A stretch of DNA of 64,000 nt from Mogibacterium diversum (GCF_938028775.1 NZ_CALIZG010000024.1:129672-193671), one strand, 5' to 3'. Numbered from the stretch's first letter, positions 23,322-45,773 are shown. A program made the numbers and translations. The notes: generated by a model not told the origin, from the sequence alone.

Positions 23322-23359
23322 TTTTTTTCCTCCATGAACCTGTATATACAAATTCTATC

Positions 23360-23397: not shown

Positions 23398-23423
23398 CCA
23401 ACAATTCTTAATATTGCTTAAAC

Positions 23424-25441: not shown

Positions 25442-25478
25442 ATATAATTAGATACTATGAGGGATTCCGTATGAAATT

Positions 25479-25943: not shown

Positions 25944-25961
25944 ATTCTCCTAAGCTATTGA

Positions 25962-26957: not shown

Positions 26958-27744
26958 AATACCCTCTATCTTCGTCCTTAAATACGTTAAATATCACTCT
27001 GTCCATAACCCCTGGGTGTTCCGAGAGCCAGCTTCTTACAGTACTAACTGCAATTTCTGCAGCGCGCTCATTAGGAAAATGGAATACCCCTGTCGAGATA
27101 CAGCAAAACGCTACTGTCTTTAAACTGTTTTCCATGCACATATTTAGTGTGTTGATATAGCAATTTGCAAGGTCTTGCTCAAGTTCATGAGTAAGGCTGA
27201 ACTGGACGATAGGTCCAACAACATGAATAACTTTCTTCGCCGGCAAGTTATATCCGTCTGTAAGCATGGGGATTCCCGTTGGCTGCTCATAGTCAGGTCC
27301 AAACTTGGCTCTTAGCCGGTTCATATGCCTATTACATTCCTCTCTAAGCTGTACTCCTGCGTATGTATGAATGCAGTTATCTATACAAGTATGCATAGGG
27401 ATAAAACAGCCTAGCATCTGTGAGTTGGCAGCATTTACTATTGCATCTACAGACAGCCTAGTAATGTCCCCTTGCCAGATTGAGAGACATTCGCTTCTAA
27501 TAGGAATATCATTTACTTCAATAATTCCATGCTCATCTGCCAAACCTTTTAAATATTCATCTTGAACTCTCAAAATTAAACCGTCGATGTGACGAGGGCT
27601 GCGGATGTTCATAAGCGAACGAAGAAGTCGCCTTTTTCCAACAACGTCCCCTGGCGTTTGCAAATCCTTATAATCTATAGAATCTGCTTTAAATTGCTCA
27701 ACTAGAAAATCTAACCTCTCAGCTTGTGTCATCTTTTCATTCAT
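26941..27744 (-). CDS. Macrodomain protein (ADP-ribose binding/hydrolase) with a 95-aa N-terminal extension
   Basis: The macro signature GDITRLSVDAIVNAANSQMLG is present, within a 267-aa protein. Confidence 0.75.
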   Translation of the reverse strand: MNEKMTQAERLDFLVEQFKADSIDYKDLQTPGDVVGKRRLLRSLMNIRSPRHIDGLILRVQDEYLKGLADEHGIIEVNDIPIRSECLSIWQGDITRLSVDAIVNAANSQMLGCFIPMHTCIDNCIHTYAGVQLREECNRHMNRLRAKFGPDYEQPTGIPMLTDGYNLPAKKVIHVVGPIVQFSLTHELEQDLANCYINTLNMCMENSLKTVAFCCISTGVFHFPNERAAEIAVSTVRSWLSEHPGVMDRVIFNVFKDEDRGYYERLI

Positions 27745-27774
27745 ATCTTTTCCCCGCTTTCACAACTTAAAGAT

Positions 27775-27780
27775 ATTATA
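27775..27780 (-). promoter_or_regulatory. Extended -10 box (TGGTATAAT) for the macro–SIR2–GNAT operon
   Basis: The minus strand reads TTGTTTTGGTATAATATC immediately after the upstream terminator, about 30 nt before the macro ATG. Confidence 0.4.
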
Positions 27781-27789
27781 CCAAAACAA

Positions 27790-27824
27790 AAGCCCATTCA
27801 CTAAATATTTGAGTGAATGGGCTT
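27790..27824 (-). terminator. Intrinsic terminator of the NCS1 permease gene
   Basis: A perfect 13-bp stem AAGCCCATTCACT / AGTGAATGGGCTT followed on the minus strand by TTTGTTTTGG. Confidence 0.7.
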
Positions 27825-27887
27825 GATGCATTTTAGTCTATCTTAGGAAAAGTTATTCGCAAATCCCGTAATATGATCGCTACTCGT

Positions 27888-29258
27888 TTATTTCTCGAGT
27901 GTAGTTCCTTTTCTGAAGTTCTCACAAGACTTCATATTCTTCATTAGCAGGTAATAGATAATCCCTGTAGGAATCGTAGCTGTGAAGAACGAAAGGTCAA
28001 CCTTGTAGAGTCCGATTGCCGCACCTACTACAGTTGCAATGATAGCCGCCATGTTTACACCAGCTTTTGACCCATTTGGATCATATAGATCGTCTAGCTG
28101 TTCCTTAGTGAAGTTTCTCTTGTGGAGAATGAAGTAGTCAACAATAAGGATAGCGAAGATTGGAGCGAAGAACGCCGAATAAATCTTAACGAATAGCGAT
28201 AGACCTGCTGCAGAGCTATCATTAGTTAGGATCCATGGGCAAGTTGCTACTGCAAGGATTCCGATTAGGATTACAGCAGTTCTGTGCTTCATCTTAAATG
28301 TATCCATGAATACGTATGCTGGTGGAATTACGTTGCTTGCAAGGTTTGTCGAAAGCTGTGCAAATATGATAAATGCCAGCGTAACAACTAGTACAATCTT
28401 ATTATCTACCATCTCCGCAAATGCGTTGATTGGATTTGCAATTCCAGTAGCTGTCGAGGCCATAGCACCGATAATTCCAAGCATAACTGTCGCTGGAACC
28501 ATAGCCATGAAATACGAGAAGCCTCTTACAGGTGCGCTGTATCCTTGCTTCATCTCACGAGAATAGTCCGATGCATTGAGCATTACTGTAGTTGAGTTTC
28601 CAAAGAAAGCAATTACAGAAGCAACAAATGGAAGTCCCCATGTACCGCTCTTATGCATTAGGTTAGCAGAAATAGCATCCCACTGAGTTGTGAGGCATAT
28701 GTAAAGCAGATAGAACATTGCAATTACAATTACTGTTCCGCCGATATTTCCGACCCACTTTGCACCCTTGAATCCCTTGATTGAGAGCAGAATCTGCACA
28801 ATCTGGAAGAGGATGAAGAATAGCCAGATATTATCATAGTGGAATAATAGTTTCGAAATATTGTTGATAGCAGCTCCACCTAGCCACGTCTGGTAGCCAT
28901 ACCATACGATAGCCGGAAGACCTCTTATCATAGATGGAAGTACATTCCCCTTAGTACCATATGCACTCTTGAGATGAATGGAATATGGTGCTCCAGTCTT
29001 ATAACCGAACTGGTCATTCATAGCTATTCCAACTACTAGGATCGTTGAGCCAAGCAGCACTGCTAGGAACAGCTGTATTAAATTGAGACCTGTCTCCATC
29101 TGAGCGGATCCCATTGCCAGAGTTCCTATTGAGATACAGCCACCGAGCCAAAGCATAGTGTTCGAGCCCCAGCTCATGGTACGTTTCTCCCACGGAATCG
29201 GTTTGATGCTCTCACCCTCATTATTAGGGGTATTTACGTTCTTGTTTTCTGTACTCAT
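27888..29258 (-). CDS. NCS1-family permease (allantoin/hydantoin/pyrimidine type), copy 1
   Basis: 456 aa with 12 TM segments in the nucleobase-cation-symporter-1 topology. Paired with a cyclic amidohydrolase. Confidence 0.7.
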   Translation of the reverse strand: MSTENKNVNTPNNEGESIKPIPWEKRTMSWGSNTMLWLGGCISIGTLAMGSAQMETGLNLIQLFLAVLLGSTILVVGIAMNDQFGYKTGAPYSIHLKSAYGTKGNVLPSMIRGLPAIVWYGYQTWLGGAAINNISKLLFHYDNIWLFFILFQIVQILLSIKGFKGAKWVGNIGGTVIVIAMFYLLYICLTTQWDAISANLMHKSGTWGLPFVASVIAFFGNSTTVMLNASDYSREMKQGYSAPVRGFSYFMAMVPATVMLGIIGAMASTATGIANPINAFAEMVDNKIVLVVTLAFIIFAQLSTNLASNVIPPAYVFMDTFKMKHRTAVILIGILAVATCPWILTNDSSAAGLSLFVKIYSAFFAPIFAILIVDYFILHKRNFTKEQLDDLYDPNGSKAGVNMAAIIATVVGAAIGLYKVDLSFFTATIPTGIIYYLLMKNMKSCENFRKGTTLEK

Positions 29259-29286
29259 ATTGTTCTCCCTTAATTATTTAGCACCT

Positions 29287-30690
29287 TTATCTAACTGGTG
29301 TTACATACTTTCCAAAGCCCTTAGCTTCTTCTACATACATACCATCCTTAGCGACAACGCGGCCACGGATAACTGTGCAGGTTGGTGCACCCTTTCCTTC
29401 CAACCCGTCGAAGCAAGTTACATGTCCCTTTGTGAAGAGCTTTTCCTGCTCAACCTTCCAAGGCTTTTCTGGATCAAGAATTACCGCATCAGCATCAAAC
29501 CCAATTTCAAATGCACCCTTCTGTCCATAGAAACCGAATACCTTTGCCGGATTATAGTCCATAACCTTAGCTATTAGGCTTGGGCACAGCTTCTTCTGAT
29601 GCACTACCATATCGAACATCATAGGAAGGAAGAATTGGATAGCATTGAGTCCGCCCCATGCCTGCCAAATGTCTCTCGACTCATTATCCTTTTCCTCGTC
29701 CGCTGCTGGTGAGTGGTCACTACCAACGCATGATAAAGTTCCATCGAGTACATAATCCCAAAGCTTTTCTACGTCTTCCTTAGTCCTTAGAGGTGGTGTG
29801 CACTTAGCTGGTCCGCCTTTTTCAAACACGAAATCTTCTGAGAAGCCTAGGTAGTGAGGGCACGTCTCAGCTGTTATTGGCAGCCCTTCGTACTGAGCCT
29901 CCTTAACGACCTGTGCAACCATAGGATGACTTACGTGACAGATATGCACTCTACCGCCAGTCGCTCTAGCCATGTCTATTACATTCTTAGTAGCTACATA
30001 TTCTGTCCATACATCGTGAGAATCGAGGAAAGCTCTAATTTTCTCTTGTCTTGAAAGACCAGTCATAGCCTTGGCCTTCTTTTCTCTCTCGAGAACCTGT
30101 CCGTATTCTTCGCAGTGGAATCCACACAGTGCCTTGTATGGCTTTAGAATCTCAAGAGCTTCACGAACATTACCCATATTCACGGTTGGAAAAAGTGGTC
30201 CGTTAGGGCATGTGAATCCCTTAAATGCAGCTACACCAGCCTTCTCAAGATCCTCAAGATCAGCAAGATTGTTGTGAACTGAATATGGATCATCATCGAA
30301 GTCTCCTACAATTCCACCCCATAGACCGAAATCGATGTATGAATGTTTAGTAACCTTACTCATCTTGAGATCAAAGACTTCCTTGTTCATGAGCGATGGG
30401 TCATTGTTAAGAGGCATGTCGATAAGAGTTGTACAGCCTGCAACGGCAGCAGCTCTCGAACCAGTCTCGAAATCTTCTCTATAATCGAATCCAGGCTCGT
30501 TTAGATGAGCATGGCAATCTATGATTCCCGGATATACTAGGTTTCCCTCTGCATCGATAACTTCTGTAGCTTCAGCTTCTGTTCCTGGAGCTAGGAATGC
30601 AGCGTACTTGCCGTCTTTTACAGCAATATCTGCTTCATAGACACGGTCTGGTGTAACCAGTTTACCGTTCTTGATAATTAGATCATACAT
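29287..30690 (-). CDS. Cyclic amidohydrolase (allantoinase/hydantoinase/dihydropyrimidinase family), copy 1
   Basis: 467 aa with a metal-binding motif (IDCHAHLNEPG) in the TIM-barrel amidohydrolase family. Confidence 0.75.
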   Translation of the reverse strand: MYDLIIKNGKLVTPDRVYEADIAVKDGKYAAFLAPGTEAEATEVIDAEGNLVYPGIIDCHAHLNEPGFDYREDFETGSRAAAVAGCTTLIDMPLNNDPSLMNKEVFDLKMSKVTKHSYIDFGLWGGIVGDFDDDPYSVHNNLADLEDLEKAGVAAFKGFTCPNGPLFPTVNMGNVREALEILKPYKALCGFHCEEYGQVLEREKKAKAMTGLSRQEKIRAFLDSHDVWTEYVATKNVIDMARATGGRVHICHVSHPMVAQVVKEAQYEGLPITAETCPHYLGFSEDFVFEKGGPAKCTPPLRTKEDVEKLWDYVLDGTLSCVGSDHSPAADEEKDNESRDIWQAWGGLNAIQFFLPMMFDMVVHQKKLCPSLIAKVMDYNPAKVFGFYGQKGAFEIGFDADAVILDPEKPWKVEQEKLFTKGHVTCFDGLEGKGAPTCTVIRGRVVAKDGMYVEEAKGFGKYVTPVR

Positions 30691-30789
30691 GTCTAATCCT
30701 CCTTATTATGAGCGGAGAGAGATGCTTATCACACCTCTCCGCTTCTTTATAGAATGAATGATTAAATAAAATTCTAACTGAATTTGTTA

Positions 30790-32151
30790 TTAGTCTTCAA
30801 AGATTGTTCCAGTTCTGAAATTCTTAGAAGATGGCATGTGCTTCATCAGTAGATAGTAAACAACACCTGTTGGGATGAGGCTGACATACCACGATAGGTC
30901 TACAACGAATACTGATACGAGGGCTCCAACAGCGATTGAAATTATAGCTGCCCAGTTGATTCCCTTGAAAGGTCCCTGCTTGTCGTAAAGAGTATTGATA
31001 TCAAGTGTGCTCTTACGAAGGAAGTAGTAATCTATAACCATTACAGCAAAGATAGGTCCTAGGAATGCGGAGTATACCTTTGTGAAAAGAGATAGTCCTG
31101 CAGCTGAGTCAGCAGTAACGAGCTTCCAAGGCATAACGCATACTGATAGTATACCAACGAGCACTGTCGCATGTGACCACTTCATTTTGAAGGACTCCAT
31201 CAAAACATATGCTGGTGGAACTATATTGTTGAGCACGTTAGTTGTAACCTGTGCAAATGCGATAAACAGCAGCGTAATAACTGTAAGGAACTTGCTTCCC
31301 ATAGTTGTTGAGAATACGACTACAGGATCTGAATTCCCTGTTGCTGCAGTAACGAGAAGTCCGATGAGTCCCATGAACAGTGTTACTGGCAGGATAGCGA
31401 TTGTATAAATCGAACCAGTCTTAACTGGCCTTATATCCTCCTTTAGGTTTCTCGAATAATCTGATGCATTGATGATCATTGTCGAGTAGATTCCGAGGAA
31501 TGAAGTTGTCGCAGCCCAGAAAGGCATACCCCATGTACCCTTAACATTTGCAAACGATGCGCTGATATCTACAGCGAACTTAGTCTTTACAACGTATAGC
31601 ATGTATGCGAGGATTGCCACGATGAATACGCAAGAGAAGTTCTCAAGCCATTTGATACCGTGGAATCCTTTGATAGCGAGACCAACCTGCAGCAGTGTGA
31701 AGAGACCAAATACAACCGGGAGGTTATCGAATCCCCACAGAATCTTGAAGCAGCTGTTGATAGCACCAGCTCCAACCCATGACTGGAATCCAAACCACAC
31801 GATAGCCGGAAGACCTCTAAGAACTCCTGGAATCTTTACACCAGTTGTACCGAAGCTTGATCTTAGCTGAACAACATATGGCATACCGTACTTATGTCCT
31901 GCATTACCGATAAGCACTAGCGCTATTGCAATTACAAGGCATCCGATTGTCATAGCTAGAATAGCCTGCGCTATTGTAAGTGTGCCTATGAGTGCTGATC
32001 CCATCGAGAATGTACCGATGGATACACAACCACCTAGAAATGATGCTGTGTAAGATAGCGATCCCATGATTCGACTCTTTGTCGGCTGTAGGTCCTCATT
32101 GACTCCGACAACAAGATTCGGATCAAGTGTTTTGTTATCTACAATACTCAT
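30790..32151 (-). CDS. NCS1-family permease, copy 2
   Basis: 453 aa, paralogous to the product of 27888..29258. Confidence 0.7.
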   Translation of the reverse strand: MSIVDNKTLDPNLVVGVNEDLQPTKSRIMGSLSYTASFLGGCVSIGTFSMGSALIGTLTIAQAILAMTIGCLVIAIALVLIGNAGHKYGMPYVVQLRSSFGTTGVKIPGVLRGLPAIVWFGFQSWVGAGAINSCFKILWGFDNLPVVFGLFTLLQVGLAIKGFHGIKWLENFSCVFIVAILAYMLYVVKTKFAVDISASFANVKGTWGMPFWAATTSFLGIYSTMIINASDYSRNLKEDIRPVKTGSIYTIAILPVTLFMGLIGLLVTAATGNSDPVVVFSTTMGSKFLTVITLLFIAFAQVTTNVLNNIVPPAYVLMESFKMKWSHATVLVGILSVCVMPWKLVTADSAAGLSLFTKVYSAFLGPIFAVMVIDYYFLRKSTLDINTLYDKQGPFKGINWAAIISIAVGALVSVFVVDLSWYVSLIPTGVVYYLLMKHMPSSKNFRTGTIFED

Positions 32152-32187
32152 TAAAATATTCTCCTTTAATTTTTCAAATAATTTCGT

Positions 32188-33561
32188 TTAAAATAGTCGC
32201 TTAACCAGTTCGCCTGTACCCTTCTGTCCAACAAGCTTACCGTCTTCTGCCATTAGCTCCCCTCTTACGAAAGTAGCTACAGGTAGACCCTTACCTTTCA
32301 TTCCTGCAAATGCAGAAATCTTATTTACATAGTATAGAGAATCTGCTGTAATCTCCCATTCTCTCTCAGGGTCAATTATTACAATATCAGCGTCAAAGCC
32401 AACTTTAATATCACCCTTCTTTCCATAAATGTGGAATGCTTCAGCAGGCAGCTTAGCCCATGAGTTAGCAAGGACACGTGGGTCAACTCCGCGCTTAACA
32501 ACTCCTTCAGAGTAAATCGCTTGAACGCAACTCTGAATGCCACTTATTCCACCCCATACGTCAAATACATTCTCTATCTTCTGTCCTAGGATTTCATTGA
32601 ACTTCTCATCATATGTACAAGGCGAATGATCTGATGCTAGCCCGGCGAAAACACCTGCTTCTACACACATCCACATGCCTTCAACATCTGCCTTCGTCCT
32701 GAGCGGAGGAGCGCACTTGAAAAGTGGTCCATTCTCTAACACATCGTCTTCTGTAAATGACAGGTAATGTCCACATGTCTCTGCAGAAACCTGATATCCT
32801 TCACACTGCGCCTCATACACCTTCTCAGCAGCTGCTGGATGGCTTACGTGACAGATGTGTGCACGGCATTCAAGCTCCTTAGCAATTTCTACTACAGTTT
32901 CTGTTGCTACGATTTCAGATGCTGGAGTTCTTGAGTCGAGGAAACCTCTCCATGTGAGATTACCAGCTTCCTTTTGTGCCTTTTCCCCTTCTTTAATCAT
33001 CGCAAAATCTTCGCAGTGGAATCCAGCCATGCCGCCAAATTCCTTGATAATTTTCATAGCCTGATACGCCTGCCCATATGTTAGCGGTGAATAGTCAGGT
33101 GATACTGGTCCTAGGAATGATTTAAAAGCGATTACTCCTCGCTCATCGAGGCCCTTTAGCTGATCAAGGTTACCAGGTACAAGTCCTCCCCAGAATGCAA
33201 AATCTGAATACGCATTAGGCTGAACCTTTGCTAGTTTAGCATCAAAAATCTCAGGTGTGGTGAGTGCTGGTTCATTCTGAAGTGGCATATCGATAATAGT
33301 CGTATATCCACCAACTACAGCTGCTGCAGTTCCGTGTTCATAGTCTTCTCTCCACTCGTATCCTGGATCATTAAGATGTGCGTGAGTATCAATAGCTCCA
33401 GGAAAAACCTGCTTGCCAGCTGCATCAATTACTTTAACCGCTTCAGGTTCATCACCCTTTGCTAGGATGGCTGCAATCTTGCCATCTTTGACAGCAATAT
33501 TTGCATCCTGAACTAAATCAGGTGTAACTACCTGTCCGTTCTTAATTAATAAATCATACAT
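32188..33561 (-). CDS. Cyclic amidohydrolase (allantoinase/hydantoinase family), copy 2
   Basis: 457 aa with IDTHAHLNDPG; paralogous to the product of 29287..30690. Confidence 0.75.
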   Translation of the reverse strand: MYDLLIKNGQVVTPDLVQDANIAVKDGKIAAILAKGDEPEAVKVIDAAGKQVFPGAIDTHAHLNDPGYEWREDYEHGTAAAVVGGYTTIIDMPLQNEPALTTPEIFDAKLAKVQPNAYSDFAFWGGLVPGNLDQLKGLDERGVIAFKSFLGPVSPDYSPLTYGQAYQAMKIIKEFGGMAGFHCEDFAMIKEGEKAQKEAGNLTWRGFLDSRTPASEIVATETVVEIAKELECRAHICHVSHPAAAEKVYEAQCEGYQVSAETCGHYLSFTEDDVLENGPLFKCAPPLRTKADVEGMWMCVEAGVFAGLASDHSPCTYDEKFNEILGQKIENVFDVWGGISGIQSCVQAIYSEGVVKRGVDPRVLANSWAKLPAEAFHIYGKKGDIKVGFDADIVIIDPEREWEITADSLYYVNKISAFAGMKGKGLPVATFVRGELMAEDGKLVGQKGTGELVKRLF

Positions 33562-33849
33562 ATAATCCCCTCCCTATAGCCTTTTAGACCATAAATGTGA
33601 AGTCGTTAATTAAATTGATTAGGTACACTCACTTATTAAAAAATGTGGTCAACCAATTTCAATGTTTCTATGGATATATACTACATTAGTAGCTAAAAAT
33701 CTTCAATATCATTATATATTTAAATACGGATTGATTGTTTTTTTTTAATTAAAATTTTTTATTGTTTTTTAAAGTTGTATGTTCAAACTAAAATATTTTT
33801 TAGTTTTTGATATAATAGTGTTAATAATTCCAAATCGAGGGTAGTAAAG

Positions 33850-34788
33850 ATGGACATATTGCAAACATCTATTTACACAATAAAAACTTTCAATAGACTG
33901 AAATCAGCTAAACTTAGACCGAACATAGACCTGTACGTTCATTCAATATATGAACGCACTATAAATCTAATGCTCGATGGTCAGCTTATAGCACTGCAGA
34001 TTGCCGATTCCCCAGTTTCTCCTATAAGCATCATTTTGCCATTGGACGAAACGGGTTTAGGCAGACTAAAAATAAAATCTAATAGTCCCATATCAATAGA
34101 TGGTACAAATTTATTAATAGGGAAAAATATCATTTCACTAGATCATGCATATGATGTTTATGATGATACACTCTACGAGCATAACTTTTCAACGTCATTA
34201 AAGGATGTGGTGTGGCAGCTTATCGTAGCCTCTGATAGGGACGGCTTTTCAACCCTCATAAAATCACAAAACACTCCAGATGATATTGCGCTTTCATATG
34301 CCAAAAAAAAACTAATTGATGCCGAATCGATATGTAGCATCATGACGTATGGAAATTTAGCCGAGGAACCCACTAAATCGAATCAGCTTAATAAATTGTG
34401 TAATTCACTATCCGGTCTTATAGGCGTTGGCACTGGCCTTACACCTGGCGGTGACGACTTTATGACGGGGGTACTTTCAACATTTAAAGCACTTCCGCAA
34501 TGCTTTAACCATAAACTGATCTCCTCTCTATCTAACTCAATATGCAGTAGACGGAACAATACGAACGAGATAAGTAGCGCTTTTATAGACTGTGCATTAC
34601 GAGGTCAATTTAGTAAAGCAATCATAGATCTATATGATTCAATATGCTTAGATAATGTACAGTTATCGGATATTGGACAAGAAACTTTAGATAATTTGTT
34701 AGACAGTTTTCTAGATATAGGTCATACATCTGGCATAGATACGTTAACCGGAATATATTGGAGCATGACACATCTTTCTAAAATTTAA
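33850..34788 (+). CDS. DUF2877 / YlbF-family protein (AllH-like oxamate carbamoyltransferase subunit)
   Basis: 312 aa with a GVGTGLTPGGDDFMTG motif. It is divergent from the allantoinase genes. Confidence 0.6.
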   Translation: MDILQTSIYTIKTFNRLKSAKLRPNIDLYVHSIYERTINLMLDGQLIALQIADSPVSPISIILPLDETGLGRLKIKSNSPISIDGTNLLIGKNIISLDHAYDVYDDTLYEHNFSTSLKDVVWQLIVASDRDGFSTLIKSQNTPDDIALSYAKKKLIDAESICSIMTYGNLAEEPTKSNQLNKLCNSLSGLIGVGTGLTPGGDDFMTGVLSTFKALPQCFNHKLISSLSNSICSRRNNTNEISSAFIDCALRGQFSKAIIDLYDSICLDNVQLSDIGQETLDNLLDSFLDIGHTSGIDTLTGIYWSMTHLSKI

Positions 34789-36365: not shown

Positions 36366-37316
36366 TTACAGCATTTTTCTAATCTGTTTTCCATCCATCC
36401 ATGATGTTATGTTCTCAAATACCATCTCTGCACGTCTATCGATGGATTCCCTCGTATCAAAGCCCACATGAGGTGTACAAACTAGGTTAGGCGCACCAAT
36501 AAGCGGATGATCTTTAGGGAGCGGAGGATCCTTCTCGAATACATCTATTCCAGCTTTAATCCTGCCCTCTCTAAGCGCCTTCGCTAATGCTTCTGTCTCA
36601 ATAACAGGGCCTCTTGCTGTGTTCACGAGTATTGCTCCTTGTTTCATAGCAGCAATTTCTTTTTCCCCAATTAAGCCTTTAGTTTCCGGTGTCAAAGGAG
36701 TGTGAATCGAAATAATATCTGCGTTCGCCATGACATCGATGAGTGGCATATACTCGAGTCCAAGAGCCTTAGCTGCAGTTTTCTCACTTCTATTAAAACC
36801 AATAAGTTTACAGCCAAATGCCTTAAAAATAGCAGCAGTTCTAATGCCGATTGCACCTGTACCTATTATTCCGACAACCTTACCTGCAAGCTCTCTGCCT
36901 GCGAGGCTGCCTTTACCAAGTCCATTTTGAACGGCTTCGTTGCATATGGTAATATTTCTCAAACAGTCCAAAGTCAACCCTATTGCTAGCTCCGCCACCG
37001 CGTCATCACAGTATCCGCCTGTATTGGATATAAGTACTCCTTTTTCTCTGCAAGCTTCAATGTCCACATGATCTATCCCTACAAATGCAACTGAGACGAG
37101 TTTAAGATTCTCGTCTGCTCTAATGACCTCTCCAGGAAGTGGATGATTTGCTATTATAAGAACCTCTGCATCTTCAGCGCGTTTTATTAGCTCGCTTGTA
37201 TCAGTAGTCACAGTATCGTATGACTTAAACGTATGACCTTGTTCTGTCAGTGTACTCGATAGTCTCTTCAAGGTGTCCTCGGAAATACCTAGTGGCTCCA
37301 TAAGAATAATCTTCAT
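36366..37316 (-). CDS. D-isomer-specific 2-hydroxyacid dehydrogenase (glyoxylate/hydroxypyruvate reductase type)
   Basis: 316 aa with an NAD motif (GIIGTGAIGIRTA) and the catalytic domain order typical of the family. Confidence 0.8.
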   Translation of the reverse strand: MKIILMEPLGISEDTLKRLSSTLTEQGHTFKSYDTVTTDTSELIKRAEDAEVLIIANHPLPGEVIRADENLKLVSVAFVGIDHVDIEACREKGVLISNTGGYCDDAVAELAIGLTLDCLRNITICNEAVQNGLGKGSLAGRELAGKVVGIIGTGAIGIRTAAIFKAFGCKLIGFNRSEKTAAKALGLEYMPLIDVMANADIISIHTPLTPETKGLIGEKEIAAMKQGAILVNTARGPVIETEALAKALREGRIKAGIDVFEKDPPLPKDHPLIGAPNLVCTPHVGFDTRESIDRRAEMVFENITSWMDGKQIRKML

Positions 37317-37460
37317 TTTATTAGTCCCCCTTGTAAATTATCTAATGTTGACTTTTATTATAGCACAATGACAGCCAATCACATTATGAAAAAATATGAT
37401 TGGCTGTCAGGTAGGTAGTATTAAGTTACGTAAAATCTTATTCCATTTTCTTAAGTGTAT

Positions 37461-38519
37461 TTAAATATTTGATAAACTCTTTGAAAGTCTTTCTAATCTA
37501 AAATCATTTTGTTTTTCAACAATATCAATCCATTCTTCAGAAAATATAGTAGCTCCATGCAAAGCACCAATAATAGCACCTACAATTGTTGATATAGCGC
37601 ATGTCTCATCACCGATATTTACAGCATCAAAGATAGCCTGAATCGGGTTATTTTTTCGTGCAATCACCAAACCAATTGCAGTAGGTACTGTTTCTGCAAT
37701 CTCTGGACCACAACCAATAATATCACGCAATTCGTCTACTGCTACATCTGAGTTGTAATTTTTCAAGGCAATCTGCTGTGCAATTTTTATTCTTTTATAA
37801 ATAGATGGACCTGGATAATCATTTACCATATCATCGTCTAAAGCTAACTGATATCCCTTTTGTGCACCATATAAGGATTTCTGTACTACACTGAACACTG
37901 TTGATTGCTCTTGGAATGCTTCTGCTATTGCTGTTGCTACTGCACAAGCCCCAGAAATACTTAGCCTGTCATCATGCGAAGTCATCGTAATTGTTTTTGT
38001 GTTTAATATTACATCATTAATCTGCTCGTTATTAATTATCCCAGTTGCAATTGCCTTGCACGCAGCACCATTAGACGATAGTGCATAGAAATGCCCTTTG
38101 AATAATTTATTCCCTAAATGACCTGATGTAGACCAGAAGTCAGTGCTATCTCTCATATTTAATAGATTTACTACTTTTCTTGTAGTCATGCCTGCAAACT
38201 GTTCAAAATATTCACTTTTGCCCCATTTTATTAATGCATTAACAGCTACATCGTTATCGATTACACCTTCATTCTCTATAATTTCCTCTAATAAATAATA
38301 TGGTATGCTAAAGGCATCTGTAACCTGACCTAAAGCTCTCCCTCGAGCTGCAGTGTCATCATCCGGTTTTATAAAATTATGAACTAAACCACCATATATT
38401 TTCATTATTTCAGAGCGACTTTTTCCATCTGTAGAGGAAGCAAGAGCATCGCCTATTGAAGCACCGCAAAGAGTGGAATATATTTTATATTCTCTATTAC
38501 TAAAAGCTTTCTCATCCAT
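37461..38519 (-). CDS. ADP-ribosylglycohydrolase (ARH/DraG) family protein, copy 2
   Basis: 352 aa with an N-terminal GASIGDALAS motif (PF03747 signature GxxxGDAxG). Confidence 0.7.
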   Translation of the reverse strand: MDEKAFSNREYKIYSTLCGASIGDALASSTDGKSRSEIMKIYGGLVHNFIKPDDDTAARGRALGQVTDAFSIPYYLLEEIIENEGVIDNDVAVNALIKWGKSEYFEQFAGMTTRKVVNLLNMRDSTDFWSTSGHLGNKLFKGHFYALSSNGAACKAIATGIINNEQINDVILNTKTITMTSHDDRLSISGACAVATAIAEAFQEQSTVFSVVQKSLYGAQKGYQLALDDDMVNDYPGPSIYKRIKIAQQIALKNYNSDVAVDELRDIIGCGPEIAETVPTAIGLVIARKNNPIQAIFDAVNIGDETCAISTIVGAIIGALHGATIFSEEWIDIVEKQNDFRLERLSKSLSNI

Positions 38520-38522
38520 TTG

Positions 38523-39542
38523 TTAGTGCTCCTTTCTCAACTGAAGACTATATATATCATTGGCCAAGCCTTTTATGTCGAGTTTGTTAACATTTTCCAT
38601 CGTAGAAATAAAATGATTTGGAAAACTAGAATCACCATTAAGTGCTCCAACTATTCCACCTACAATAGTAGCTATAGTATCGGTATCGTACCCTATGCTC
38701 GCCGCTTCACTAATCGATCTCATCGAATCGCCTGAACAAGCAGCGATTATTCCAAAAGCTGTAGGAACAGTCTCTGATACGTGTAGACCTGTTCCAATGA
38801 TATCAGCTATGTTACAAATACGCTCATCTATACTACCAGTTCCAAATCCAATATCCACCGCCATCTTTATGCGATTTACAACTGATGGTCCAGCAACGTT
38901 ATTACTATGTGCTTTACCTATCTTTTCACCTTCTTTAGCTCCATAGATCCCGGCATCTATAACATCGTATAAATTCGAATCCTCTCTAACCGCCTCGCTA
39001 ACTGCAGCTGCCACTGCACACGCACCTGAAATAGCTAAATTATTATTATGCGTTACAGATGCTACTATAACAGCATCCTTAATTGCATTATCCGTATTAG
39101 CAGCGTTGATTAACCCTATTGGTGATATTCGCATTGCGGCGCCATTTGTAGCTTGTCTTGCTTTATTTTTTATCCCTTCTGAAAGCTGTACTTCTTCACC
39201 TGCAAATCTTTTAATTGCAAGTCTTGTTGTCGGTCCTGCAAAACGGTCAAAAAAAACAGCATGTTTCGACCATTCGACAAGCGCATTTTGAACTATTTCT
39301 TCATTTACTACTCCTGCATTATCAACAATTTCTTTTGCAACAAAATACGCAGAACTAAAATCGTCTGTAAATCCACCAGCTTGATTTCCTGCACCAAAAG
39401 TATCATTAGGTGGCTTAATAAACTCGGTTACTTTACCTCCAAATGTATCAATTATTTGATTTGATGACCTTGCTTCAGTTGCTGCTCCCATTGCATCACC
39501 AGTAGCAGCTCCAATAAGGCATCCTAATATTTTATTGTACAT
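38523..39542 (-). CDS. ADP-ribosylglycohydrolase family protein, copy 1
   Basis: 339 aa with LIGAATGDAMGAATE. It lies 3 nt upstream of its tandem paralog. Confidence 0.7.
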   Translation of the reverse strand: MYNKILGCLIGAATGDAMGAATEARSSNQIIDTFGGKVTEFIKPPNDTFGAGNQAGGFTDDFSSAYFVAKEIVDNAGVVNEEIVQNALVEWSKHAVFFDRFAGPTTRLAIKRFAGEEVQLSEGIKNKARQATNGAAMRISPIGLINAANTDNAIKDAVIVASVTHNNNLAISGACAVAAAVSEAVREDSNLYDVIDAGIYGAKEGEKIGKAHSNNVAGPSVVNRIKMAVDIGFGTGSIDERICNIADIIGTGLHVSETVPTAFGIIAACSGDSMRSISEAASIGYDTDTIATIVGGIVGALNGDSSFPNHFISTMENVNKLDIKGLANDIYSLQLRKEH

Positions 39543-39603
39543 GCACTTATCTCCTTTTACTTAAAAGGGAAATACTGTTACAGTATTTCCCTAGGTGATT
39601 TTT

Positions 39604-40656
39604 TTATTTCCAGTCTTCCATCTTTGAAATATTATCTTTTGAAACTAATATTATTGGAATGCTACTATCAAGTGTTGATACATCTTGTCCTTGTGATGCT
39701 TTAAGCATTGCAAGGACTGTTCTTCTTCCTCCAAGATAAGGAGACATTGCTACAGATGCATCTAATTCACCTTTTTTTATAGAAGCTTTAGCTTGAGATG
39801 TAAAGTCATTTCCAACTACAACAACTTTCTTTTTCAGCTTGAGTTCTTTTAGTGCTTTAATAACACCCATTGCCATATCATCATTTCCACACGTAATTCC
39901 AACAATATCAGGATGCGCTTGCATAATCGATTTTGTTGCATCATATGCTTTCTGCTGATCAAAGTCGCATTGTTGTACTGCAACTACTTCCATTCCCTTT
40001 GATTCGAATACCTCTTTTGCACCATCTCGTCTGCCGTCTGACTGCGTAGCGCCTTCTGTACCAGCAATTATTGCTACTTTTCCCTTATTTTTCTTTTTCT
40101 TAGCTACAAACTTACCAGCCTGAACACCTTGCTCGTGGAAGTCCATCTTTAGCTGACAATCGATATGTGCTCCTGCAAGCTTTAGAGCATCCTTGTTCAA
40201 AGTTGTTCCACTTAGAATAACTTTTACACCGCTCTTATTCGCAGCAACTACACCATTAATTAGATTGTTTTCAGATAGTGGAGATACTGCAATAGCATCA
40301 TAATCTTTCGAGATCATCGTATTCATTATGTTCAGCTGACCAGCAAAATCTGTGTCATTATCTGTCGCCTGAATGTCGATTTTTACGCCATACTCTTTAG
40401 CAGTAGCTTCCGCACCCTTCTTATTTGTCTGCCAAAACTCGTTTGATAGGGAACTAAGAATTACACCTAGTTTTTCACCATTTTTCTTCTTAGGTAGTGG
40501 CGCCATACTCTTATCAAGTTCTGCTTGCGCCTTCGTAAACTCTGTGTCCTTTTTGCTGCTAGATTCATCACTTTTCTTTTCGTTACAACCTGATAAAAGT
40601 GTCGTACCGAAAGCAATTACTACTATCAGTGATAATGAGATAAATTTTTTTCGCAT
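39604..40656 (-). CDS. ABC transporter substrate-binding lipoprotein (PBP1 ribose/sugar type)
   Basis: 350 aa with a lipobox (LLSGC) and the type-1 periplasmic-binding fold. Confidence 0.7.
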   Translation of the reverse strand: MRKKFISLSLIVVIAFGTTLLSGCNEKKSDESSSKKDTEFTKAQAELDKSMAPLPKKKNGEKLGVILSSLSNEFWQTNKKGAEATAKEYGVKIDIQATDNDTDFAGQLNIMNTMISKDYDAIAVSPLSENNLINGVVAANKSGVKVILSGTTLNKDALKLAGAHIDCQLKMDFHEQGVQAGKFVAKKKKNKGKVAIIAGTEGATQSDGRRDGAKEVFESKGMEVVAVQQCDFDQQKAYDATKSIMQAHPDIVGITCGNDDMAMGVIKALKELKLKKKVVVVGNDFTSQAKASIKKGELDASVAMSPYLGGRRTVLAMLKASQGQDVSTLDSSIPIILVSKDNISKMEDWK

Positions 40657-40693
40657 TTCATAACCTCCTAAAGTGTCAATAAGTATTTTATGC

Positions 40694-41644
40694 TTAAAGG
40701 GTTTGATTTAAAGAACCCTCAATAGCCATAACTTCATCATACGATGCTATACTGCGCGGTCCATATTTCGTGCATTTTATTGCAGCAGATGCACTTGCAA
40801 ATTTTAGTGAATCGGAGATAGAATTACCTTTGTCATATAATGAATACAATAACCCACCTATAAAACAATCTCCTGCCCCCGTTGTATCTACAACATTGAC
40901 ATCGTACGAATCAACCTTAATAAAGCTTTGACCATCAAACCAAATCGCCCCTTCTGAACCAAGTGTACATACCACACCATCATCAGGTTTATATATTTCA
41001 TATACAGTCTTAACTGCATCGATCGGATCAAACTCACAACTTCTGGCAATCTCAAGAATTGCATCCTTACCACCAATTATCATCGATGATAATGACAGAA
41101 CTTCATGAATCATTTCTTCACTTGCACCACATAATGGCATAAATGACGGTACAGCTTGCATATTCATAACAATCTTACAATTTCTCTTATGTGCCTCTCT
41201 TGCCAAAAATAGTGAAACTTTGGGCGAGAACATATCTGTAAAATAAATATCTATTCTGTCAAGAATATTATCAGGAAGCTCGCTTGGTTCAAAACTAGGA
41301 AGACAATCTCCCATATTTGCAAATATTGTATGCCTTCCATCTGGCGTCGTAACAATATATGTATGAGTTGTTATTCCACCTTCTTTTGTATAAATATACT
41401 TTTTGTTTACTCCATCTTCTACAAGACTACTTTTAAATAAATCTCCTATTTCATCTGTTCCAACCTTTCCAACTTGATATGTATCCATACCAAACCCAGC
41501 AGCTGAAACACAAACATTTGCCGAACTCCCACCTGGAAATATCTCCTCTTTATTAATAAGAGCGAACCCATCATTTATTGGCAAATCACTACTATTTAGA
41601 ACTACATCCATGGCAATGCTTCCAGAAGATAAAATCGTTGTCAT
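40694..41644 (-). CDS. PfkB-family carbohydrate/nucleoside kinase (ribokinase or pseudouridine-kinase like)
   Basis: 316 aa with N-terminal GGSSANV and the C-terminal anion hole DTTGAGDCFIGG. Confidence 0.8.
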   Translation of the reverse strand: MTTILSSGSIAMDVVLNSSDLPINDGFALINKEEIFPGGSSANVCVSAAGFGMDTYQVGKVGTDEIGDLFKSSLVEDGVNKKYIYTKEGGITTHTYIVTTPDGRHTIFANMGDCLPSFEPSELPDNILDRIDIYFTDMFSPKVSLFLAREAHKRNCKIVMNMQAVPSFMPLCGASEEMIHEVLSLSSMIIGGKDAILEIARSCEFDPIDAVKTVYEIYKPDDGVVCTLGSEGAIWFDGQSFIKVDSYDVNVVDTTGAGDCFIGGLLYSLYDKGNSISDSLKFASASAAIKCTKYGPRSIASYDEVMAIEGSLNQTL

Positions 41645-42601
41645 CTATACTTCCCTCCGTTTAATTTTGTCTCTACTTGATATCAAAACTGAAACAACAA
41701 TTATCACTCCAGTTATAATTTCCTGATAATGAGTTGAAATTGATAGCAAGGTTAAACCATCACTAATTATATTTAGAATTAAACAAGCAATAAAAGGACC
41801 AATTATGTTACCTTTACCACCCTCTAAAACTGTTCCACCAAGAATCACCGCGGCAATTGCATCCATTTCATACCCTGTGCCGGCAAGTGGTTCTGCTGAA
41901 TCTAATCTCCCCATAACTACTACACCTGCTACAGCAGCTAAAAGACCTGAAAATGCAAAAACCCAAAGTTTATATTTCTTTGAATTCACACCCATACGAC
42001 TAAGTGCTACTTCATTTGCACCTAAAAACAAGCAATAATTTCCATATTTAGTTTCTGCAAGAATGAATCCTGAAATAACAACTGTAATTAATGCTAGCAA
42101 AATTGGGAAATTAATTGGTCCAATATCACCAGCACCTATAAATCCATATAGTTTACCAAATCCATATAGAGTCTTTGAGTTCATTACAAGCAGAATTATC
42201 CCTCTTAAAACAGTCATGGAGCACAGCGTAACAATAAACGAATTAATTTTTACATATGCGACAAGCCACCCATTTATTAATCCTATTAATAAACCTGTGA
42301 TCAGCCCCGCAAATATGCACAACCAATCTGGTATTCCTACATAATATAAGTTAGACATAACCATACCAGTAAAACCTATTGTAGCGCCCACCGAAAGGTC
42401 TATATTTCCAGATATGATAATAAATGTCATACCAATCACTAAGAATATGAAAAGCGACGATTGATTTAAAACATTTTTAAAATTTGTCATAGTCAAGAAA
42501 TAAGGCGAAAGACATGACATCACCAATATAAGGAATATCGTTATCAATATTAGTAAAGCATCGTATGACATTAAAATTTTATAACAGTCTAATTTTTTCA
42601 T
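41645..42601 (-). CDS. ABC transporter permease (RbsC-like)
   Basis: 318 aa, polytopic. It overlaps the ATPase gene by 4 nt. Confidence 0.75.
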   Translation of the reverse strand: MKKLDCYKILMSYDALLILITIFLILVMSCLSPYFLTMTNFKNVLNQSSLFIFLVIGMTFIIISGNIDLSVGATIGFTGMVMSNLYYVGIPDWLCIFAGLITGLLIGLINGWLVAYVKINSFIVTLCSMTVLRGIILLVMNSKTLYGFGKLYGFIGAGDIGPINFPILLALITVVISGFILAETKYGNYCLFLGANEVALSRMGVNSKKYKLWVFAFSGLLAAVAGVVVMGRLDSAEPLAGTGYEMDAIAAVILGGTVLEGGKGNIIGPFIACLILNIISDGLTLLSISTHYQEIITGVIIVVSVLISSRDKIKRREV

Positions 42602-43440
42602 ATTTCGTTTCTCTTATTCGCATTATTATAAATATCAGCCGAGGTTAGCACCTCTACAACCTCTTTCATTGAGATATCTTCAACTTTTTCTTCGAGCAGA
42701 GCACATCCATGACGTAGTACAACTATTCGATCTGCAACCTGGAAGACCTGCATAAGATTATGAGATATCATTATTACTGTAAAACCTTCATCTGCTAAAT
42801 GTCTAATTAATTCAAGAGTCCTATTTGATTCATTGATTCCCATCGCCGCTGTTGGCTCGTCAAAAATTAGGATATTCCCACCTCTATTAACAAGCCTAGC
42901 AACTGCAACACCTTGCCTTTGTCCTCCACTGAGGTTCCCAACATTAACCTTCGTATCCGGTATATTTATCTTAAGACGTTTGAGAAGCTCATTAGTCTGC
43001 CTGTGCATTGCTTTTTTATCAAGTAAACCATGTTTTGTTATTTCACTGCCTAAGAAAATATTGGAAGCAACATCCATCGAATCACCTAAAGCTAAGTCCT
43101 GATAAACAGTAGATATTCCAAGTTCAAATGCTTCTCTTACATTTAAGTGAGAGTACTTTTTTCCATCAATTTCTATTATTCCACTATCGGGTCTAAGAAC
43201 CCCAGATAATATCTTTATCAAGGTGGACTTTCCTGCACCATTATCTCCAACTAGGGCAAGGACTTCTCCATTGAATGCTTCCAGCGAAACATTATCTAGA
43301 GCAATAATATGATTAAAATGTTTGGAAATATTACTTAATTTAATATTCGACTTCATATAAAAAACCAAAATTCCCCATTCTCTACATACATAAAACACAG
43401 GTCTGAAATAACTAGTTTTCTGAAAATAAACTTTCTGCAA
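42598..43440 (-). CDS. ABC transporter ATP-binding protein (single ABC domain)
   Basis: Walker A (GDNGAGKST), signature (LSGGQRQ) and Walker B (ILIFDEPT). Confidence 0.8.
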   Translation of the reverse strand: MQKVYFQKTSYFRPVFYVCREWGILVFYMKSNIKLSNISKHFNHIIALDNVSLEAFNGEVLALVGDNGAGKSTLIKILSGVLRPDSGIIEIDGKKYSHLNVREAFELGISTVYQDLALGDSMDVASNIFLGSEITKHGLLDKKAMHRQTNELLKRLKINIPDTKVNVGNLSGGQRQGVAVARLVNRGGNILIFDEPTAAMGINESNRTLELIRHLADEGFTVIMISHNLMQVFQVADRIVVLRHGCALLEEKVEDISMKEVVEVLTSADIYNNANKRNEI

Positions 43441-44194
43441 TAATTACGTTTTTTAAAATAGACTCTAACTGCAGCTTTGAAGATGCTCCATTTGTTGATC
43501 TATCTATAAATTCATTAACTGCTGGATGGAAACTTTTTCCCATTCGAGCTTCTTGCTTACCAAACTCTATTGCTTCCTCAAGAATGTGATTATCTATGAT
43601 TCTCTTCTCTGGTGGAATCTGGACTAATAAAAGATTGGATTTATTGTAGACAAACGAGTGTTCATTGAACTCACCATCTAAAGGATAATGGTTACTATTA
43701 AAAATATAACCATTACATTCTTTTGATTTATAGCCCAAAACTTCTATGTCGTGCTGATAAAGCCAAGTAAAGCTACCATCATAGTCCATCATATCCTTGA
43801 TAGCTGTTGCGATAAGCATGGTTTTTTTCTCCGCAATAACATCAAAATCGGAACTTCTACGTCTAATAGGAGCGTCTCCAATACCACCAATACCACAGCT
43901 TACGGCAGCTGGAATACCATGCAAAATGCAAATTCTCATCGTAGCTGCAGCAGTCAGTGCCGCATCTTCTTCCCCACACAAATATTGACTTAGATTTTTA
44001 TCATCAGCTCTATTAAAAACCAATTTAGAACGAAACTTTATAAATTCATCTATACCACCTATTTTGAGCGTGCCTTTTTCTATCCAGGCAAAGTTCGCAT
44101 TTGTTTTTTTGAAAGCTACTGCAATTTCATCATCCGATATCGATGAAAGTCCATGACATAATAAACATGTTTCAACTAGAAAATTTATTTTCAT
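43412..44194 (-). CDS. Divergent PsuG-like protein (pseudouridine-5'-phosphate glycosidase / IndA family)
   Basis: 260 aa. The blocks LVETCLLCHGLS, GIPAAVSCGIGGIG and TNGASSKLQLESILKNVIIAESL align with conserved PsuG blocks (ESTIISHGMP, ATGGIGGVHRG, TGGDSLKSNIQLVFNNAILASEIA). It is about 50 aa shorter than canonical PsuG. Confidence 0.5.
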   Translation of the reverse strand: MKINFLVETCLLCHGLSSISDDEIAVAFKKTNANFAWIEKGTLKIGGIDEFIKFRSKLVFNRADDKNLSQYLCGEEDAALTAAATMRICILHGIPAAVSCGIGGIGDAPIRRRSSDFDVIAEKKTMLIATAIKDMMDYDGSFTWLYQHDIEVLGYKSKECNGYIFNSNHYPLDGEFNEHSFVYNKSNLLLVQIPPEKRIIDNHILEEAIEFGKQEARMGKSFHPAVNEFIDRSTNGASSKLQLESILKNVIIAESLFSEN

Positions 44195-44512
44195 ATCTTT
44201 AAATTAAATAATTCATATTTTAGCTAAAAACGTCCCTTATCCCCTTATATATTTCATTATAGCTAGTGACAAATTTATAGTTAAATTGCAAAACACTATA
44301 CATCTTGTGAAATTATAGGCAATTTTTATATGCTTTTGCAGTTAGTTCACTTTACAACTTATTAAGGAGAATGCATTATAATGCTATAATCAACAGCTAA
44401 ATTTTTCTACATAATATAGTCTATTGTGCACAATTGATTTTCGTGTTAAAATCCCGTATATCATACTAATTCATCACATTAATTAACTTAAATATAGAAT
44501 TTGGAGTAATTC

Positions 44513-44698
44513 ATGAAGGACAAACTGATTTGTGGATGTGTCAGAGTGTATCGCTCGGACATTGAAAAAGCCATCTTAAATGGAGCACATACATATACAG
44601 AGATTCAAGAGGAAACAGGAGCGGGCACTAGCTGTGGAAACTGTAGACCTCTTGTAGAAAAAATTATTCGCGAAACCATTTCTGGACTTGATGAGTAG
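44513..44698 (+). CDS. BFD-like [2Fe-2S]-binding domain protein
   Basis: 61 aa with two Cys pairs (CGC…CGNC) in the Fer2_BFD arrangement. Confidence 0.7.
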   Translation: MKDKLICGCVRVYRSDIEKAILNGAHTYTEIQEETGAGTSCGNCRPLVEKIIRETISGLDE

Positions 44699-44831
44699 TT
44701 ATGATCTTAACCTAAGTGCCATTTATAAATGAAATATATTTAAGCACACATGTAAATGTTGGGCATGGCATGGAATTAAACGGTTAATGCAGCTCATATT
44801 TCGTATAACACCACATTATATAAAATTTAAG

Positions 44832-44877
44832 AAAGCACAACCACCTAACACCTGTTAAGTGGTTGTGCTTTCTTTTT
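44832..44877. terminator. Bidirectional terminator between the convergent BFD-like and surface-protein genes
   Basis: A 13-bp stem AAAGCACAACCAC / GTGGTTGTGCTTT followed by CTTTTT. Confidence 0.7.
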
Positions 44878-44885: not shown

Positions 44886-45773
44886 TTACTTACTAAGTTT
44901 AAACTTCTTTTTCATTAGAATTAGCATGACACTAGCTACCGAGAGACCAAGCAGTCCCGAGTAAAATTCAATACCTGTATTGTCGGATGTCTTTGGTGCG
45001 ATTCTACTACTAGCTTTTTTCGCCTTAGAAATCCCAGGTCTAGATGGAACACGTGACTTTGAGACCTTAGGTTTTGGCGTTTCCTGAACCTGAGGTGTAG
45101 TTGGAGCTGGCTCTGCATACTTAGTGTAGACGTACGTACGAATGTCGGAAGTATCCGGGAGTGTATTTTTAAAGACATAAGCGATCTTGCCACCTGCATC
45201 GTATATATACTGATCTGCATCGAGGAATCCAAAGGTCCCTGCCTCTTTTACGGTGTTGCCATCTTCATCGATGTATCTGGTCACTTTTGCCATTGGCTGT
45301 TCAGTCAATATAGTAACATTAGGAACAGCTCCAGTAACCGTTAGACCAAGAAATATAACGCGTCTTTTTACGGGTTTAAATACCTCTACTCCATTTTCTA
45401 CAGTTCGATACCTAATTGTCTGTGTAGCAACCCTGTATTCTCCATATTTACCACCTGCCCAAGGTATAACTGTAGCTGCTGCCTGTTCTGAGTCTGGATT
45501 ATTAGCATCTGGATTGACAATATCCGAGTGGTTAGATTTCCAGGAATTAATATAGTCGGTCATATCCTGTCCTGTCAGGGTATATGAACCTGTATACGTT
45601 ATGTTCTCATCGACAGCCGTTGCTCCTGAAGCAATATTCCCCTCCGCAAAAGTCTCGTCGATATCGAAAATTAATACAAGCTGCACGGTAATAAGCAGAA
45701 TTAAAAGAACCAAAAAAACACGCCTATATTTTGATGACTTTGTAATTTCATATTTCACAATCTTGCCTTTCAT
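44886..45773 (-). CDS. Cell-surface protein with an N-terminal signal-anchor, a Pro/Thr/Lys-rich linker and a C-terminal hydrophobic segment plus basic tail (sortase-substrate-like, non-canonical motif)
   Basis: The C-terminus reads IAPKTSDNTGIEFYSGLLGLSVASVMLILMKKKFKLSK. An upstream linker reads AEPAPTTPQVQETPKPKVSKSRVPSRPG. Confidence 0.55.
   Translation of the reverse strand: MKGKIVKYEITKSSKYRRVFLVLLILLITVQLVLIFDIDETFAEGNIASGATAVDENITYTGSYTLTGQDMTDYINSWKSNHSDIVNPDANNPDSEQAAATVIPWAGGKYGEYRVATQTIRYRTVENGVEVFKPVKRRVIFLGLTVTGAVPNVTILTEQPMAKVTRYIDEDGNTVKEAGTFGFLDADQYIYDAGGKIAYVFKNTLPDTSDIRTYVYTKYAEPAPTTPQVQETPKPKVSKSRVPSRPGISKAKKASSRIAPKTSDNTGIEFYSGLLGLSVASVMLILMKKKFKLSK

Follow-up and report, generated by a model that had tools for sequence, protein, structure and literature searches.

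What does a bacterium do with two ADP-ribosylglycohydrolase (ARH) genes set beside a pseudouridine-glycosidase-like gene, a sugar kinase gene and a ribose-type importer? The question is raised by positions 37461-44194 of a 64,000-nucleotide stretch of Mogibacterium diversum DNA (GCF_938028775.1 NZ_CALIZG010000024.1:129672-193671; the window hereafter), which a sequence-only reading had described as an operon for import and breakdown of an unusual ribosylated compound. That general idea is supported by the gene families, their conserved linkage and the active-site patterns, and with moderate confidence we propose that the seven genes constitute a conserved riboside-utilisation operon of anaerobic Firmicutes, whose products would import a riboside, phosphorylate it at the 5-position and cleave it to ribose 5-phosphate. 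The enzyme combination has no counterpart in any characterised pathway.

The seven co-oriented, tightly packed open reading frames lie on the minus strand, mostly overlapping or a few nucleotides apart, and both their boundaries (37461-44194) and their Pfam assignments agree with the gene families first proposed. Transcription would begin with the PsuG-like gene, here PsuG-S (43412..44194; 260 residues; a weak Indigoidine_A/PsuG PF04227 match, 1.7e-14, 54 bits), and continue through an ABC ATPase with a single nucleotide-binding domain (NBD) (42598..43356, with the reading frame extending to a TTG at 43440; ABC_tran PF00005; 252 residues from ATG 43356), an RbsC-like ABC permease (41645..42601; BPD_transp_2 PF02653, 5.5e-43), a ribokinase-derived PfkB kinase (40694..41644; PF00294), an AlsB/RbsB-like lipoprotein substrate-binding protein (39604..40656; Peripla_BP_4 PF13407; lipoprotein signal LSGC) and two ARH-family proteins, ARHa (38523..39542; ADP_ribosyl_GH PF03747, 8.6e-55) and ARHb (37461..38519; PF03747, 4e-36). 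The kinase gene had been placed between the importer and the ARH genes, and is in fact flanked by the permease gene on one side and the binding-protein gene on the other. Proteins of M. neglectum and M. diversum share 92-94% identity with ARHa, and the operon was found unchanged in many human-associated metagenome contigs.

The association is widespread, as two censuses made clear. The first, from the PsuG-S side, scanned one genome per GTDB species and returned 58 loci: 44 species had the importer-only arrangement ATPase-permease-binding protein-PsuG-S, without kinase and without ARH, about 10 of the 58 loci had PsuG-S in other settings, and four had it with the kinase and the ARH pair. An apparent rarity of ARH linkage (4/58) was discarded as an artefact of the peptide patterns used, which were biased to the importer-only clade and under-sampled ARH-linked PsuG-S, and was corrected by a scan from the ARHb side. 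This second census covered ARHa homologues in Tissierella, a Lachnospiraceae and Dehalobacterium together with 63 metagenome loci retrieved by means of an ARHb alignment, with lineages defined at 90% ARHb identity (L numbers below denote loci). The block ATPase-permease-PfkB-binding protein-ARHa-ARHb was constant in 29 lineages from genomes and metagenomes, and PsuG-S, usually directly after ARHb, was in the cluster in 16 of the 20 lineages with enough flanking DNA and absent from the other four (12 of 16 when only loci retrieved from the ARH side are counted). The association of ARH, PfkB and PsuG-like genes first noted is thus borne out, the linkage being far beyond chance, and both censuses make the window operon one arrangement of a common association. 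Orthologous operons devoid of ARH genes had been named as a finding that would speak against it, and here the outcome is mixed: the 44 species with PsuG-S and importer lack both ARH and kinase, so the cluster is assembled from two modules able to exist separately. PsuG-S was also seen directly after an ECF-transporter S-component (L031:9284-9949), an IU-type nucleoside hydrolase (L062:8102-9256) and a branched-chain-type ABC system (L048:5215-9787), so that one enzyme can be supplied by several kinds of uptake system.

The kinase and importer point to the kind of molecule handled. The nearest solved structure to the PfkB kinase is ribokinase 6znx (1e-24), and among NCBIfam models it scored best against those of ribokinase type (118-123 bits, below the ribokinase cutoffs). 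It retains the RbsK ligands of the 2-OH and 3-OH groups, D16 and N46, and the catalytic D255 (GAGD), and all 20 aligned lineages have F/Y in place of E143, S in place of K43 and A in place of N14. The human ribokinase counterpart of E143 touches the C1 hydroxyl (PMC12621476). We infer that the kinase is a riboside 5-kinase. Likewise, the permease (236 bits against the ribose permease model, cutoff 398; its gene overlaps the ATPase stop by 4 nt) and the Peripla_BP_4 binding protein are those of a ribose-type (CUT2) importer, of which the tandem NBD is missing: as already noticed from the sequence, the ATPase is single-domain, matching only positions ~3-246 of the YtfR, XylG, AraG and RbsA models of about 490-513 residues. 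The protein is 252-280 residues long, in same-species contigs it is called as 252 or 266, and the start is probably ATG 43356. The best solved match of the binding protein is the D-allose-binding protein 1rpj (4e-44; 199 bits against the AlsB model, cutoff 335), and the sugar contacts N13, F15, W16, Arg, D(F/W)D, ND and D are retained. In the ARH-type protein Gly/Ser stands where the AlsB 'LDE' motif has Asp, and Met where 'AQNP' has Gln, the same two positions being Gly and Tyr/Thr in the importer-only type; the lost Asp and Gln are residues that close the AlsB/RbsB pocket.

Judged by these residues, the binding protein and kinase look like ribose binders opened at the anomeric side, and loss of the C1-OH ligand in one and of the Asp and Gln in the other therefore fits a glycoside rather than a free-sugar ligand. 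Use of a free rare sugar of the D-allose, D-ribose or D-psicose type, taken up by the AlsB-like importer and phosphorylated by the ribokinase-like kinase, would account for the best matches of the two proteins, allose-/ribose-binding proteins and ribokinases respectively. It is nonetheless very unlikely given the lost key contacts, the NCBIfam scores far under every equivalog cutoff and a cluster with no isomerase or epimerase, and it would leave three glycosidic-bond enzymes without a function.

The first of these enzymes, PsuG-S, had rightly been called short and divergent: it is ~45 residues shorter than PsuG and 18-20% identical to it. Its Pfam match (PF04227, 1.7e-14) was complemented by a confident predicted structure (AF2 model, pLDDT 94, pTM 0.92), for which the best Foldseek match was E. 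coli PsuG (4gik, TM 0.82, 19-20% identity), followed by AlnA and TM1464; the model superposes on E. coli PsuG, Arabidopsis PUMY, AlnA and TM1464 with TM ~0.8 at 18-20% identity. The family is small and discrete, with ~109 clusters (50% identity) at E <= 1e-30 among 1.84 billion representatives, and no NCBIfam model matched PsuG-S. HMMER and MAFFT alignments agreed on the key residues. With the PsuG catalytic mechanism as reference (PMC7722734), the E. coli residues Glu31, the Schiff-base Lys166 and Asp149 correspond to Glu8, Lys133 and Asp116, all invariant, Glu8 and Lys133 in 75 PsuG-S homologues by both alignments, and a basic residue (Arg or Lys) is retained at Lys93. Changed, on the other hand, are the uracil determinants Thr130 (Thr149 in Arabidopsis) to Cys100 and Asn289 (Arabidopsis Asn308) to Gln242, His137 is deleted, and the Mn2+ ligand Asp145 (Arabidopsis Asp164) is Arg112 in the window protein. 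Hence, of the catalytic residues that the sequence-only reading had singled out, the Glu/Lys pair is kept and the metal ligand is not. The Mn-ligand position is Glu, within a fixed GEELCPD loop, in the importer-only clade, and in PsuG-S the nearby Asp107 might replace the ligand. By its residue pattern, the ring-opening Schiff-base machinery appears intact and the aglycone pocket unlike that for uracil, and PsuG-S is probably a Lys-Schiff-base enzyme cleaving a C-ribosyl or ring-opening-type bond. In a neighbour-joining tree, indicative only on account of its long-branch root, ARH-linked PsuG-S formed a basal grade and importer-only PsuG-S a derived clade. A supposed distinction between kinase-linked proteins with the phosphate-binding Ser147 and importer-only ones with Cys was abandoned, as in a larger alignment the gut ARH-linked clade also has Cys.

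PsuG together with PfkB had been taken as the signature of pseudouridine catabolism, and that pathway, with pseudouridine imported, phosphorylated to pseudouridine 5'-phosphate and split by PsuG-S to uracil plus ribose 5-phosphate, the ARH proteins being accessory, deserves weighing. The PsuG fold with its Glu/Lys catalytic pair and the adjoining PfkB kinase are what it would predict, NCBI labels PsuG-S homologues pseudouridine-5'-phosphate glycosidase, the Thr to Cys and Asn to Gln changes are conservative, and a pseudouridine synthase gene lies beside the cassette in L067 and L090. Yet the signature does not hold: the kinase is not PsuK (20.7 bits against PRK09850, cutoff 540), and both residues reported as the nucleobase determinants of PsuG (PMC10761123) are changed and His137 is gone. 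Moreover, PsuG-S escapes the NCBIfam PsuG models, and canonical ~300-residue PsuGs score at most ~109 bits on a PsuG-S profile that gives full-length members at least 150. Since the invariably present ARH pair would also be left without a role, we consider pseudouridine an unlikely substrate of the operon, and the aglycone is probably other than plain uracil.

ARHa has a canonical di-metal site, its TDD (TDDFSS) and GYDTDT motifs and its catalytic Glu (ATEAR) matching the metal-binding and catalytic residues of ARH3 in alignment, and the nearest structures are MJ1187 (1t5j) and ARH3. ARHb, 36% identical to ARHa, departs from this set of di-metal ligands while remaining in the Pfam family (4e-36): it has TDA for TDD, GDET(C/S/A) for GxDTDT and a conserved insertion W..GHLGNKLFKGHYYALSSNG, invariant across seven lineages. 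ARHb adjoins ARHa in every locus, and we take the two as an obligate pair and putative heteromer. Could the pair instead reverse protein ADP-ribosylation, or process ADP-ribose-derived metabolites in the manner of DraG or ARH3, and merely be adjacent to a sugar operon? ARHa does have the complete ARH3/DraG catalytic set, and a 12-bp hairpin followed by TTTTAA (39566..39592, minus strand) lies ahead of it like a terminator. A macro-domain protein of 267 residues, an ADP-ribose-binding or -hydrolysing fold, is also encoded ~10 kb from the ARH genes (window 26941-27744). Against this, the pair stands beside the binding-protein and kinase genes in 29 of 29 lineages, with gaps down to 15 nt, there is no linked ADP-ribosyltransferase, and the DraG and Tri1 equivalog models give 57-59 bits against cutoffs of 337 and 490. 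A role in de-ADP-ribosylation thus seems highly improbable to us.

The hairpin itself is probably a leaky terminator or an mRNA stabiliser, elements often found behind binding-protein genes. An equivalent one follows the binding-protein gene in 9 of 13 other lineages, and in L097, L119, L123 and L128 it is absent and the gap is 15-38 nt; with the ARH genes so close behind the binding-protein gene in four lineages, co-transcription is therefore the ancestral logic.

From the observed gene families, conserved synteny, active-site residue patterns and PsuG fold we infer that the substrate is a ribosyl compound, in which order the steps run, how the ARH pair and PsuG-S share the work, and what is produced. 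The lipoprotein binding protein and single-NBD importer would take up a 1-substituted D-ribofuranoside, nucleoside-like and with a largely apolar aglycone, and the ribokinase-derived kinase, in which an aromatic residue replaces the Glu at the anomeric OH, would phosphorylate its 5-OH. ARHa/ARHb may then hydrolyse a ribosyl-N or ribosyl-O bond in a metal-dependent manner, and PsuG-S may use its Glu8/Lys133 Schiff-base pair to open the ribose ring and break a C-ribosyl or glycosylamine-type bond, to yield ribose 5-phosphate for central metabolism and the free aglycone. Three unrelated scaffolds, each recognising a ribose or ribose 5-phosphate moiety, are combined here: the ribokinase fold, the ARHa di-metal site and the PsuG fold.

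Several points weigh against such a scheme. One ribosyl bond needs only one cleaving enzyme, which does not account for the ARH pair and PsuG-S being there together. The Mn-ligand position of the window PsuG-S is occupied by Arg112, in a loop that is variable among ARH-linked homologues. Between the binding-protein gene and ARHa, the window has a terminator-like hairpin. The 44 species with PsuG-S and importer have neither kinase nor ARH, and their PsuG-S is either independent of a 5-phosphate or served by a kinase encoded elsewhere. No regulator or riboswitch that would name the ligand was found in the window or the related loci; in particular, Rfam searches of the window and 14 related loci revealed no riboswitch ahead of the cassette. 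An FMN riboswitch in an Acutalibacteraceae locus (L010:18790-18943) was dismissed as a cassette regulator, as it lies ~2 kb downstream of ARHb and probably controls the next gene. Finally, our literature searches found no paper treating an ARH, PfkB and PsuG-like cluster. The families are all known, and none of the papers found describes their combination, the PsuG-S subfamily, the ARHb subtype or the modified kinase; riboside salvage by a kinase and a glycosidase is of a known kind, and there is a fair chance that the cluster represents a new pathway.

Additional genes in relatives bear on the aglycone. In at least five independent lineages, genes for a double-cubane cluster protein and its ATP-dependent activase lie within the PsuG-S/ARH cluster or immediately next to it (L055:3818-5743; L037:9611-10700; L097:11819-13794; L102:9397-11440; L042:4641-6086; L099:1-480), with looser linkage in L001, L067 and L123 (the L067 copy matches NF040772 with 535 bits). 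The physiological function of double-cubane cluster proteins is unknown (PMC9351452), and this recurrent linkage is a lead on it. At least eight lineages likewise have an MtaA/CmuA-like methyltransferase of the URO-D family within the cassette or adjoining it (L055:12980-14110; L068:11095-12216; L069:3849-4931; L115:5401-6470 and 8732-9403 among them), and in L115 a corrinoid-binding protein is also within the operon. In the window, genes for double-cubane cluster, URO-D and corrinoid proteins were sought and none is present. As a lead only, the methyltransferase and double-cubane partners hint at an aglycone that may carry a methyl group and resist reduction. In one gut lineage a glycyl radical enzyme (PFL-like and Gly_radical domains; L090:11830-14160) lies between the PsuG-S and URO-D genes.

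These corrinoid-linked genes bring up salvage or catabolism of alpha-linked ribosides, such as the cobamide lower-ligand nucleosides alpha-ribazole and its methoxy-/hydroxy-benzimidazole or phenolic analogues, in which the alpha-riboside would receive its 5'-phosphate from the kinase and have its alpha-ribosyl bond hydrolysed by the ARH pair. Characterised ARH enzymes (ARH1, ARH3, DraG) act on alpha-linked ribose bearing a 5''-phosphate, and ARHa matches their fold; the kinase and binding-protein pockets would suit an apolar aglycone; and the cassette repeatedly contains or adjoins MtaA-like methyltransferases, a corrinoid protein and CobW/RACo operons that carry cobalamin riboswitches. Those riboswitches (L094:14503-14680 and L128:13270-13447), considered as cassette regulators and rejected, nevertheless precede, and belong to, a separate methyltransferase operon (CobW / URO-D / corrinoid protein / URO-D / RACo / URO-D) that is the cassette's immediate downstream neighbour. 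The window has no cobalamin riboswitch and no cob gene, PsuG-S would have no obvious role, and our literature search found no paper linking ARH enzymes to cobamides. Built mainly on chemical analogy, salvage of this kind is in our view distinctly improbable.

A broader possibility extends the riboside-utilisation proposal to a new pathway by which anaerobes would handle an aromatic or heteroaromatic riboside, such as a C-riboside or alpha-riboside; cobamide lower-ligand nucleosides, or fragments of other cofactors or of modified nucleosides, would be examples. In it a small-molecule ARH heterodimer and the Schiff-base PsuG-like enzyme would cooperate on phosphoribosides, and relatives would use a corrinoid-dependent demethylase together with an ATP-driven double-cubane reductase on the aglycone. 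This extension is speculative and we put it forward tentatively.

As to the limits of the operon, a candidate promoter, TTAACT-17-TATAAT (44256..44284, minus strand; 10/12 matches in a consensus scan), lies ~60 nt upstream of PsuG-S, in a region where promoter-like sites are no more numerous than in the shuffled expectation, and is a candidate only. At the other end, a 17-bp hairpin after ARHb (37369..37409, minus strand; fold energy -30.1 kcal/mol, z = -3.2) is followed by an extended -10, TGcTATAAT (37357-37365, minus strand), a promoter-like site ahead of a 2-hydroxyacid dehydrogenase gene (36366-37316) 144 nt downstream of ARHb. Hairpin and extended -10 likely mark the end of the operon and the start of a dehydrogenase unit. 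That the dehydrogenase might belong to the operon, as had been suggested, was rejected: it accompanies the cluster in Mogibacterium alone, and behind the hairpin lies a promoter-like site of its own.

Between the pyr operon and PsuG-S are a 61-residue BFD-like [2Fe-2S] gene on the plus strand (44513-44698) and a 295-residue reading frame (44886-45773) that matched nothing in Pfam or NCBIfam and is closed by a strong 20-bp terminator hairpin (44830-44873). Downstream of the operon, the region 19244-34788 appears devoted to N-heterocycle catabolism and resembles anaerobic allantoin/oxamate-type pathways, with an AllG/FdrA-like fusion (19244-22249), Ldh_2 (22269-23351), a cupin, two amidohydrolase and NCS1-permease pairs (27888-33561) and AllH (33850-34788). 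Low G+C segments (0.29-0.33, compared to ~0.41 elsewhere) at window positions 6001-10000 and 24001-26000 may be acquired DNA.

To our knowledge, bacterial ARH-family proteins outside DraG-type regulation, E. coli YegU included, have no known substrates, and we know of only one catabolic substrate for the PsuG/IndA family. In many anaerobes of gut, oral and digester origin the operon joins the two families with a dedicated importer and kinase, and it offers a purifiable, testable pathway for a ribosylated metabolite, with the binding protein as a direct route to the ligand. If the broader aromatic-riboside pathway holds, it would provide the first physiological roles for bacterial YegU-like ARHs, and possibly for double-cubane cluster proteins.

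Among known systems, RbsABC-RbsK and AlsBAC-AlsK have the same folds of permease and binding protein as the operon, whose kinase is also on the ribokinase scaffold and which keeps half of the residues in contact with sugar, but the operon has a single NBD, a binding protein without the Asp/Gln contacts and a kinase without E143, K43 and N14, and it lacks RbsD and an isomerase. The E. coli yegTUV cluster, whose function is unknown (PMC10819704), similarly unites an ARH-family protein (YegU), a PfkB kinase (YegV) and a transporter (YegT, of the NHS family), and a full-length alignment of YegU with ARHa gives 29% identity (4e-38). The resemblance drawn earlier thus stands for the ARH and PfkB pairing, and only as a loose analogy: alignment of YegV with the kinase is limited to 83 residues around the C-terminal ATP motif, yegTUV has one ARH instead of a pair, an MFS transporter instead of an ABC importer and no PsuG-like gene, and orthology was rejected, YegV not being an orthologue of the kinase and no YegT/NHS transporter occurring in the operon. 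With ARH3, DraG and MJ1187, ARHa has in common the fold and the metal and catalytic residues, whereas the ARH genes here lie in a small-molecule import context, and ARHb has an altered metal site and an insertion not found in ARH3. PsuK/PsuG (YeiC/YeiN in E. coli, PUKI/PUMY in Arabidopsis) comes close in logic, a PfkB kinase acting before a PsuG-fold enzyme to give ribose 5-phosphate, and in the structure of PsuG-S (TM 0.82), where the Glu31/Lys166 pair and Asp149 are kept. It differs in that our operon has a ribokinase-like kinase instead of PsuK, an ABC importer instead of PsuT and two added ARH genes, and that PsuG-S is ~45 residues shorter, 18-20% identical, with Cys/Gln at Thr130/Asn289, His137 deleted and Arg at the Mn ligand. 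Lastly, the IndA-family C-glycosynthases (AlnA; SdmA-type) perform Schiff-base chemistry on ribose 5-phosphate and belong to actinomycete biosynthetic clusters; PsuG-S shares their fold (4ex8, TM 0.78), but its gene stands beside importer and kinase genes, in anaerobes of gut, oral and digester origin.

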